Below are positions 1 to 3,000 of a DNA stretch of 64,000 bases, piece by piece. Each line of letters begins with the position of its first letter. Position 1 is the stretch's first letter. The position numbers are program-made. The stretch lies in NCBI GenBank assembly GCA_965652295.1, contig CBFGTS010000009.1, forward strand, positions 1 through 64,000, given 5' to 3'. Source of the DNA: an uncultured Haloferula sp. GTDB taxonomy: Bacteria > Verrucomicrobiota > Verrucomicrobiia > Verrucomicrobiales > Akkermansiaceae.

Positions 1-3000
1 GCTACCATTTTCCCGCCGCCCCATGGCCTGGGTCTACATTCTCCGCGGAACCACGGGTCGCCACTACATTGGTGCCACCCGCGACCTCGACGCCCGTCTC
101 GCCGAGCACCACCGCGGCGGGGTCCACACCACCAAACGCCTCGGCCATCCTCTTCATCTGATGGCGTCCGCTGAGTTTCCCGACATCCACACCGCGATGA
201 AGCATGAGCGGATGCTCAAAGGCTGGAAAAGTCCCGCCAAAACCATTGCGTGTCTCAGCGAGAAGTAGAGCAGCCCCGACTTCGTCGGGGTTGGTCGCGG
301 GTTCAATTCCCGCCCCTGCTACCATTTTCCCGCCGCCCCATGGCCTGGGTCTACATTCTCCGCGGAACCACGAGTCGCCACTACATCGGTGCCACCCGCG
401 ACGTGAAATGTCGAGTTACTCAGGGAAATGAAAGCTTTCCTGCCACTGGCGCGTTGAGGCAGAACCCCCTAGGTTCTTCACATCCATGCGTTTCCTTTCC
501 ATCACCTTGCTTTCCATCCTGCTGGCTCCGGGCCTCTCCGCCGAGCCGCTCACACAATCGGACCGGGAGGCGCTCCTGACCAAACTTGAGCGGCTCCAGG
601 ATGCTTCGGACGCCAAGGTGGCCGAGCGCTTCAAGGTGGCCGTCCGCGCATTCCGCACGGCGGCGGCAAGCGAAACCGCCGCGATCGAGCTCTACTTGAA
701 GTGCATCGAAAAGATCGAGTTCGACGACGAATACCGGAAGAGCCAGGAGTTCCGCGAATGGAAACGCAAGGAAGCCGACCGCCTCAAAAGCCAAGGCTTC
801 AAGCTCGCGTTGCGCCACCAGCTCCGCTGGCTGATCCTGACCCTGCAGGCCGCCTCCCCCTCAGCAGCGGACACGAATTTCGCCGGGCAAGCGGCGCAGT
901 ATGTCGACGACCTTTTCGCCGATCTTCCGCAGATGGAGGGCCAGGAACGCACGCTGCAGCAGTCGGTCATGGGCACCATTTTTGCCCAAGCCTACAAGCT
1001 CACCGACGTGAAGGTGGAGAACTGGCCGATGACTCCCGCGAATGTCGGCGAGGTTTACGACAAGATCGTCATGCCGCCCCTCCGGATGCCCTCGCGGACG
1101 GACGACCTCCGGGCGGCTTGGCAGAGAAGGATCAAGCTGGAAACCGAAGCCCAGGAGCAGTGGACGGCCCGAAGGCGCGAAGAGCGGGGCGAAGACAGGC
1201 GGATCGGCACCAAGGAGGCGTTGCGGGCTCCGGAGTTCGAAAAATTTCTCGCCGAGACCTATCCGGACCTGCTGTGGCAGATGGAAGTGGATCTCTACAA
1301 GGCCGGCGACCAGCGCGGTGCCGCCTTGCGCATGTTCCAGCACCTCGAAAAATATCTCGCCCATCCCAAGGTGACGGACTGGATGACGGACATCTCCACC
1401 CTCCTGAACACAGCCGATGCGGAAAAGCCCGAGCCCGGTGACGAAGTTCCGGAGACGGAGGAAGCACCTTCGTCCTGAGCCCGCGACAAGACCGCGGCCT
1501 CGCCCCCTGCCAAACGGCCAACCCCGCCTTGCCAGTGCCCCCGCGGACACCGACAATCCCGGACCGTGCCGATCGTCCTCGCCATCGAAAGCTCCTGTGA
1601 TGAAACCGCGGTCGCCATTCTGCGCGGCACGCCGGGCGAACCCGCCGCCATTCTCGCCTCGGAAATCGCCAGCCAGATCGAGCTGCACCGCGTCTACGGC
1701 GGCGTCGTGCCGGAACTGGCCTCGCGAAATCATTCGCTGCACCTGCGGCCCTTGGTGGAGCAGGCGCTTGATCGCGCGGGCCTGGCGCTTGCGGACATCG
1801 ACGTTTTCGCCGCCACCTCCGGCCCCGGTCTCGCCTCCTCGTTGCTGATCGGCACCACGGCAGCCAAAGCCCTCGCCGCAGCCTCGGGAAAGCCGTTTCT
1901 CGCCATCAACCACCTTGAAGGCCATCTGCTCTCGCCCTTCGTGGGGCTGGGCGACGTTCCTCCCCACATCGCACTGATCGTTTCCGGCGGCCACACGCTG
2001 CTGCTCGATGTCGAGAAGCCCGGCGTCTATCACAAGCTCGGCACCACCCGCGACGATGCCGCGGGGGAGGCCTTCGACAAGGTCGCCAAAATGCTCGGCC
2101 TGCCCTATCCCGGCGGCCCGGAGATCGAAAAAACAGCCGCCACCGGAAACCCCGCCGCCTTCGATTTCCCGCGCTCGATGATGAAGGAGCCGGGCTTCGA
2201 CTTTTCCTTTTCCGGGCTGAAAACCGCAGTGCTTTACACGCTGAGCGATCGCCATCCCGAAAGCGGCGTGCCGGCTGCGGAAGATCTTCCGGACCTCTGT
2301 GCAAGCTTCCAGCAGGCGGTGACCGATGTACTCGTGAAGAAAACGCTCAAAGCCGCAAGCCACACCGGGCGCACCGCTGTCGCCCTCTCGGGCGGTGTCT
2401 CGCTGAACCGCACCTTGCGCCAGAATTTTCAGACTGCGTGCGAAAAGGGCGGGCTCTCCCTCCACATCGCGGAAGCCGGGCTTTGCACGGACAATGCCGC
2501 CATGATCGGCTTTGCGGCGCTGCTGCGTCATGCCGCCGGCCAACGCTCGCCGCTGACCGCTCCGATCGATCCCAACCTGCCTCTGGCCACGGCTTGATTT
2601 TCCTTGGCGGTCCTCCGACCAGCGTTTCCTTTGATGCCAGATGGCCTACCGCACGATCATCTTCGACTTCGACGGCACCTTGGCGGACACGCTCGAAGAG
2701 AGCCGGAGGATTTACAACCAGCTGGCGACTGATCTCGATCTGCGCCAGGTCACCGCCGAGGAGCTGCCGGGGTTACGCCATTTCTCCCTCAAGGAACTGC
2801 TCAAACACCTCAACATCCCCAAGCGGCGGGTACCCGGCCTGATCACCCGCGGAACCACCTTGATGCGCGGAAACATCATGAGCCTGCCCCTCATCGAGGG
2901 CATCGCCGCCATTCTCCCCACGCTGCGCGCACGCTGCCATTCCTTTGGCGTCCTCACCTCCAACGCCCCCACCAATGTCGATCTCTTCCTCCGCTCCCAT

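Follow-up and report, generated by a model that had tools for sequence, protein, structure and literature searches.

The window analysed here, a stretch of 64,000 nucleotides from an uncultured Haloferula sp., opens with the last 7 nucleotides of a tRNA-Met(CAU) gene, and its positions 1–55 are identical to the last 55 nucleotides of a second contig (C3), on which that tRNA is complete. Joined in this way, the two contigs give the arrangement collected in Table 1, in which the intact tRNA is followed by a small GIY-YIG nuclease gene and then by a partial copy of the tRNA (window 261–324) in which a hairpin stands in place of the anticodon arm, and is preceded by a copy of its 5′ half (C3:314031–314081) that shares the hairpin stem of the downstream copy. 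These features had all been proposed in a preliminary description of the locus and are borne out by our analysis; the upstream copy is, in addition, present as loose ends in an independent soil run (X3). The DNA of the hairpin region folds with z = −3.7, none of 200 shuffled sequences being equally stable. We note, as a feature of the intact tRNA itself, an A-G mismatch at pair 31–39 of the anticodon arm (C3:314136–314150), which is kept in the relatives seen.

Table 1. Features at the start of the window and at the adjoining end of contig C3
Feature	Position	Strand	Remarks
Left module, 5′ half	C3:314031–314056		26 nt
Left module, hairpin	C3:314057–314073		followed by 8 nt of the 3′ half and a 27-nt spacer
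Intact tRNA-Met(CAU)	C3:314109–314183; window 1–7	+	ARAGORN; window 1–7 are its last 7 nt
Spacer, tRNA CCA to start codon	8–22	+	15 nt; repeated at 325–339
Single-domain GIY-YIG nuclease gene	23–268	+	81 aa; PF01541; stop codon overlaps D-arm remnant
D-arm remnant ending AGAGCAG	261–273	+	AGAGCAG, tRNA nt 21–27; conserved 5′ flank of hairpin
Hairpin	274–290	+	17 nt, in place of 15 nt (tRNA nt 28–42, between positions 27 and 43)
Complete tRNA 3′ half	291–324	+	nt 43 to CCA; 100% identical to C3:314150–314183
Stump of second right module	325–402	+	spacer and first 21 nuclease codons; 318–402 against 1–85, 97.6%

The genome contains three CAU tRNAs, at C3:314109, C2:112985 and C2:260051, which, by identity features rather than by an isotype model, we take to be elongator Met, Ile2-like and initiator, respectively. 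The tRNA at the window locus is thus probably the elongator, and the Met and Ile2 labels of CAU tRNAs in what follows are assumed on the same basis.

The preliminary description also proposed a 317-bp unit with a second unit behind it. The unit does exist, with a period of 317 nt, but it corresponds to the right-hand module only, with the 5′ half in front of the tRNA and the final 3′ half appearing to belong to the host gene, as discussed below. Likewise, a second unit begins 317 nt later but is only a stump. The copy number at the locus is probably one full unit, from the contig depths of run X1, which is possibly the source sample and in which this rough measure amounts to 12.5 for the ORF and 11.1 for the unique flank, rising to 18.3 in the repeated positions 291–372. 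In runs X3 and X6, the depth of the ORF is about half that of the flank, and there are contigs that extend from the anticodon arm past the unit with 23–25 letters on one side, which we did not count as a bridge. Further along, window 486–1478 encodes a secreted-looking protein of 330 aa, upstream of tsaD, which has no Pfam or NCBIfam match and of which five relatives each have one or two homologues.

The 81-aa ORF matches PF01541 with E = 5.1e-13 and 49.6 bits (cut-off 22.6), which places it in the GIY-YIG superfamily; it has no other Pfam match and no NCBIfam match, an HUH (Y1) transposase is absent, and only unnamed GIY-YIG clusters were matched in the ESM Atlas. Residues Y5, Y15, G17, R25, H29 and E62 are conserved at 98–100% in 130 distinct relative ORFs, and the median dN/dS is 0.14 (over the 62 pairs of 4186 with a usable dS). 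The structure model consists of one domain (pLDDT 89.6), with no C-terminal DNA-binding domain. Its nearest solved folds are the UPF0213 protein BH0048 and Slx1, and the nearest solved sequence is also of the UPF0213/Slx1 type. Slx1 nicks branched DNA. The UPF0213-like genes of these genomes (L004, L006, L010 and L014), in contrast to the gene described here, do not lie beside tRNA copies.

Hairpin-bearing tRNA copies in relatives

Among the best 80 of at least 95 confirmed genome contig loci, 69 have a same-strand Lys(UUU) or CAU tRNA (41 and 28, respectively), and a hairpin copy lies downstream of the tRNA at 59 of these 69, which reproduces the count in the preliminary description; 39 of the 69 carry a hairpin copy upstream, and 31 carry both. 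The 28 CAU cases comprise two different genes, 25 being of elongator-Met type and 3 of Ile2 type. A tRNA is also present at 63 of the best 80 of 273 metagenome loci, which form a redundant set. As for the loci without a tRNA, several have a tRNA remnant that begins at the anticodon loop, which we read as the trace of a later island insertion, and six encode distant proteins without a tRNA link. Islands were later inserted in front of the element at L018, L019, L023, L028, L039 and L050, and the truncated native copies found upstream look like island ends. Behind the ORF, no intermediates with a native anticodon arm were found in the loci inspected, in a search that was not exhaustive.

What is conserved in the hairpin is its sequence as well as its pairing: stem pairs 1–7 are kept in at least 150 of 155 hairpin copies, while the loop is variable. 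The copies are asymmetric: upstream, the 5′ half is present in full (median 26 nt) and the 3′ half is reduced to ~7 nt, whereas downstream it is the 3′ half that is complete (median 31 nt), with no more than ~7 nt left of the D arm. When the search left the flanks unconstrained, the likeness to the tRNA still broke off sharply, 7 nt ahead of the hairpin (85 copies) and 6 nt beyond it (55 copies), and, in 85 downstream copies, identity to the locus's own tRNA is 0.91–1.00 at positions −1 to −7 and 0.11–0.21 by position −15. At L574 and L575, a second such hairpin follows another CAG in the D arm. Taken together, the fixed pairs, the kept short flanks and this second hairpin suggest a protein-binding site.

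The proposal of a minimal, tandemly amplifying, tRNA-linked GIY-YIG element is upheld by the tandem ORFs, which are mostly 96–100% identical; those at L034/L035 and L130 are only 66–67% identical, which points to separate arrivals. Compensatory T-stem differences between the inner and the outer copy were seen in one clear case (L025) among 110, plus L422; a second row that had been flagged proved to be an artefact, and such differences are too infrequent to be of use. At six loci (L044, L073, L089, L403, L404 and L409) the order varies, with the nuclease gene lying between a hairpin-capped 5′ half and the intact tRNA, that is, in the left module. Two of these (L403 and L409) also have ~80–95 nt of host promoter and leader duplicated; the duplicated promoter at both loci, and at L574, is the host's own, which fits local duplication or arrival from a close relative.

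A viral or phage origin was considered and rejected: the protein search found no relative in viral contigs or phages, and a GIY-YIG gene or T-arm copy accompanies none of 80 fetched motif matches in viral contigs (out of 91).

Filled sites, empty sites and the behaviour of the modules

In one genus, the filled locus L528 differs from the empty loci L532 and L551 only by ~93 nt before and ~310 nt behind an intact tRNA, and both this comparison and that of the filled L541 with the empty L527 are collinear on both sides (75–91%), the modules alone being extra. The whole insert in such filled/empty pairs amounts to ~93 + 310–320 nt, with one GIY-YIG ORF and no integrase. At sites of the L528 type, it is the host's own promoter that precedes the outer 5′ half, and its own trailer that comes after the outer 3′ half. 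As judged from these alignments, the host tRNA gene is shown to be split with an intact tRNA in its middle, such that the outer halves are those of the host's original gene, parted by a left module (5′ half, hairpin and spacer) and a right module (3′ half, ORF and hairpin). By extension from these pairs in relatives, window 291–324 would be the host's original tRNA 3′ half. The arrays of 5′ halves and of ORF units, in turn, may be the product of unequal crossover between the inner tRNA and an outer half.

Within the window's genus, the syntenic loci L183 and L188 have the same gene and promoter in front as the window locus, but there the promoter is followed at once by the intact tRNA. Among 29 other elongator-Met loci of the genus (a set from which one Ile2-type row was dropped), an upstream copy is present at two, and at none does the ORF come directly after the tRNA; in one of these two genomes, the ORF is displaced elsewhere. 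Right-hand synteny was uninformative, the downstream gene not lying beside a tRNA in five relatives. We also note that two sequence types of elongator tRNA-Met coexist in this genus (L178–L207), and that the syntenic locus L194 has the other type, so that the tRNA itself may have been laterally replaced.

The inner tRNA at the window is identical to the tRNA of the empty relatives L181, L183, L188 and L198, and this bears on whether the element spreads by classical homing, in which the nuclease would cut the native anticodon arm, the hairpin would be an immune replacement, and repair would copy the cassette via the tRNA halves, in the manner of SegB. The hairpin does always disable the anticodon region, each clade is strongly faithful to one tRNA, and decayed copies exist (the L528 ORF carries an internal stop), and SegB is reported to cut tRNA genes and to drive both homing and amplification (PMC2330249, PMC13096335). 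With an inner tRNA like that of empty relatives, however, filled alleles would not be immune, which makes homing on the native arm less likely; moreover, the hairpin sequence is conserved, which immunity does not require, and the C-terminal DNA-binding domain is absent. Taking both sides into account, we consider classical homing unlikely.

Evidence for transfer comes from pairs of loci in which the element and its surroundings differ in their identity. L100 and L101 are 94–100% identical over the tRNA and ORF (84% in the last bin), with flanks that fall to 41–58%, and L145 and L154 share an ORF at 94% vs flanks at 77%; at L136 and L157, the upstream flank is 88–100% identical but the ORF only 71%. 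Across 283 pairs, which are not independent, the identities of flank and ORF correlate weakly (rho = 0.24). Occupancy is patchy: 16 of 30 tRNA-Lys loci in one genus are empty, while 6 have both modules, 4 the right only and 4 the left only, giving a modest co-occurrence (Fisher p = 0.045, for kin that are not independent), and in another genus 4 of 30 Ile2-type loci are filled. A search of four runs, made in contigs only, found no joints indicative of a circular or excised form.

Loci with the same left spacer have ORFs that are 62–74% alike per bin, and the prediction of a nested cassette failed, in that the first ORF of L034 did not group with the loci that share its inner spacer. We thus rejected a single fixed cassette that travels whole, since spacers and ORFs reassort; the left and right modules behave instead as separate units joined through the tRNA.

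Mobility, which the preliminary description had left open, gains comparative support from the filled/empty pairs and from transfer. At the level of sequence comparison, the inserts are shown to be precise, and the element to move between divergent hosts, with modules that reassort, amplify or are lost between direct repeats. Given that the insertions are precise, that hosts which are themselves divergent carry nearly identical elements, and that occupancy is patchy and the dN/dS low, the element is very probably mobile, and this with neither a ligase nor a recombinase of its own. There is no obvious drive favouring the filled allele, and MAGs are the source of most of the loci.

Empty sites also bear on a host-beneficial role of the copies as RNA, in which they would act as decoys or regulators, for example against anticodon nucleases, with the gene as a domesticated helper. 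Such a role would fit the position of both copies on the tRNA's strand, behind its promoter, and the fact that T arm and hairpin fold; nevertheless, orthologous sites are empty in 16 of 30 and 26 of 30 cases, older array units decay, neither copy forms an acceptor stem alone, and Rfam gave no family other than tRNA for the copies. We regard this role as highly improbable, and the term "mimic" in the preliminary description, which implies it, found no support in the sequence analysis.

tRNA targets across the phylum

The claim that the element targets only two tRNA genes across the phylum does not hold. The window's clade and its hairpin also occur at Ile2-type tRNAs (L100, L101, L056, L132, L422, L566 and L574), and an Arg(CCU) locus (L348) has the same hairpin with a 51%-identical protein. 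A tree of 106 ORFs calls for no fewer than 5 changes of target, vs a shuffled mean of 37.4. In the window's genome, Lys(CUU) also carries the flanking bases of the hairpin site, yet this tRNA is not the target at any of the 160 loci inspected.

A profile search found a small stand-alone GIY-YIG gene in 54 of 121 genomes drawn from the phylum. At 46 of 69 of these phylum loci (the top of the matching list, with the window's own left out), a same-strand tRNA or tmRNA, of 20 kinds overall, lies within 450 nt, vs ~1% by chance, and 11 of the 23 loci without a near tRNA have less than 350 nt of upstream sequence. By eye, ~19 of the 69 loci carry partial tRNA copies that contain a hairpin, the tRNAs concerned being fMet, Met, Arg, Asn, Pro, Val, Gly, Cys and Leu, so that related clades widen the range of targets further; the sequence and position of the hairpin differ by tRNA type among these copies.

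This frequency of neighbouring tRNAs is also relevant to the possibility of a REP-like pair of nuclease and hairpin without tRNA specificity, for which tRNA genes would be merely survivable sites (only with duplication), and which would spread passively by host recombination and gene transfer. Near-identical palindromic repeats at C6:103898 and C24:40253, intergenic and without a tRNA, share the element's hairpin core with other flanks, and a large sister clade of GIY-YIG genes (L349–L414, many loci), which accounts for most of the other phylum loci, lies ~200–290 nt behind tRNA-Ala, Val, Ser, Gly, Arg, Asp, Leu or tmRNA, with REP-like repeats that start at CCA and no tRNA copy, both of which speak for such a pair. 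Association with a tRNA or tmRNA far above chance argues against it, however, as does the full motif, which occurs only 1–2 times per genome in five genomes, and we find it quite improbable.

Three further observations concern other tRNA genes. Behind tRNA-fMet of the window's genome lies a truncated GIY-YIG gene of ~35 codons (C2:259899–259990, minus strand), with no hairpin copy seen, which is a relic of the fMet-type element. Behind each of three tRNA-Ser genes (C1:441574, C1:474645 and C2:136283) stands a repeat of similar make-up, with a hairpin and then a conserved stretch of ~80 nt. The fMet-type hairpin (L005, L015, L347 and L376) stands right after the anticodon loop and resembles the Neisseria NTS by eye, but it has at least 3 mismatches to the SRM motif and so falls outside its definition.

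Proposed mechanism and relation to known systems

The best explanation of these data, to which we assign a probability of roughly 55%, is a selfish element in which a small GIY-YIG nuclease is combined with a hairpin site of its own and for which tRNA genes serve as conserved landing pads. In its full form, the order is host 5′ half, hairpin, short spacer (often with a promoter), intact tRNA, nuclease gene, AGAGCAG, hairpin and host 3′ half. The nuclease would bind AGAGCAG-hairpin-TTGGTY on the single-stranded non-template strand and nick beside it, in the manner of SsnA at NTS. Once nicked or released, the module would recombine into a tRNA gene through its 26-nt or 31–34-nt tRNA half, restoring one intact tRNA, and occasionally the hairpin would be written into a new tRNA with matching flanks, leading to a target switch. 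Nicking at the hairpin, followed by host recombination, is what we infer from the precedent of SsnA and from the nearest folds, UPF0213 and Slx1; the nicking step, argued by analogy, seems to us slightly favoured. In an alternative, stronger form, these would form a new and very widespread class of ultra-minimal mobile elements free of a recombinase, whose ~80-aa hydrolytic nuclease both writes the hairpin into tRNA genes and recognises it there, releases single-stranded modules bounded by hairpins and reinstalls them in other genomes, which we put at somewhat below even odds. That the modules would in this strong form sometimes carry a replacement tRNA and promoter, and that each nuclease clade would pair with one tRNA species and hairpin, is similarly tentative.

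According to PMC11893778, the hairpin is bound by SsnA solely as single-stranded DNA and with the help of bases immediately beyond the stem, and the cut falls a few nucleotides upstream; Chenal et al. (2025) suggest there that NTS-ssnA-NTS is IS-like. Ssn (cd10448) resembles our element in being a single-domain GIY-YIG gene of less than 100 aa (~90 aa) that lies between oriented hairpins whose neighbouring bases are conserved. The protein clade probably differs, however, and the hairpin occurs here 1–2 times per genome, inside tRNA copies, as opposed to hundreds of times for Ssn. The SRM motif, as defined in PMC11893778, is found neither at the window locus nor at any of 160 related loci, and the word "tRNA" does not occur in the main text of that paper. 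Two proteins that adjoin NTS motifs (L209 and L265), which served as proxies for SsnA, give E values of 4.5e-4 and 0.011 and branch separately in a quick tree whose deep forks lack resolution. By these proxies, the nuclease would not be a member of Ssn, a family to be recognised by E < 1e-10 to SsnA or by cd10448 as the best match.

SegB of phages T4 and T6 is, similarly, a free-standing GIY-YIG gene beside tRNA genes that spreads with them and promotes segmental amplification. According to PMC2330249 and PMC13096335, it is phage-borne and equipped with a DNA-binding motif at its C terminus; its double-strand breaks fall at a 27-bp site in the T arm, and it also tolerates its own sites. In our case, by contrast, there is a catalytic domain only, on the chromosome, with tRNA halves split by hairpins; patchy distribution, lateral transfer and decay are found as for SegB, while a filled allele that lacks or alters its target is not, the inner tRNA matching that of empty relatives. 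IS200/IS605 and REP/RAYT elements depend on an HUH (Y1) transposase acting on single-stranded DNA hairpins, which the present element lacks. Integrase-driven islands at tRNA genes replace the 3′ end, and the likeness lies in an intact tRNA on one side and a displaced 3′ part on the other; here, however, there is no integrase, the length is 317–400 nt, both halves are displaceable, and the anticodon arm is overwritten. Fungal mitochondrial endonuclease ORFs may bring a replacement end of the gene they invade, such that the invader would restore the host gene via a replacement part, as here; their targets, however, are protein-coding, their enzymes are larger, and no hairpin is involved.

Our literature search, for which most subscription journals were out of reach, found no published description of this arrangement, although the homologues listed in the supplements of PMC11893778 may include loci of this kind. 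There is a fair chance that the element, as a hairpin-linked single-domain GIY-YIG, forms a class of its own.

Stand-alone GIY-YIG genes of small size are common, for the majority no function is known, and most of the copies we fetched lie at tRNA genes. If they are selfish elements of tRNA genes, this would explain many pseudo-tRNAs, arrays of tRNA halves and assembly breaks at tRNA genes. It would carry the Ssn concept beyond an enzyme family to actual mobility, with many new nuclease-hairpin pairs that are testable with oligonucleotides, and, if true, it would provide a function for many uncharacterised small GIY-YIG proteins as well as a route for the lateral replacement of tRNA genes.
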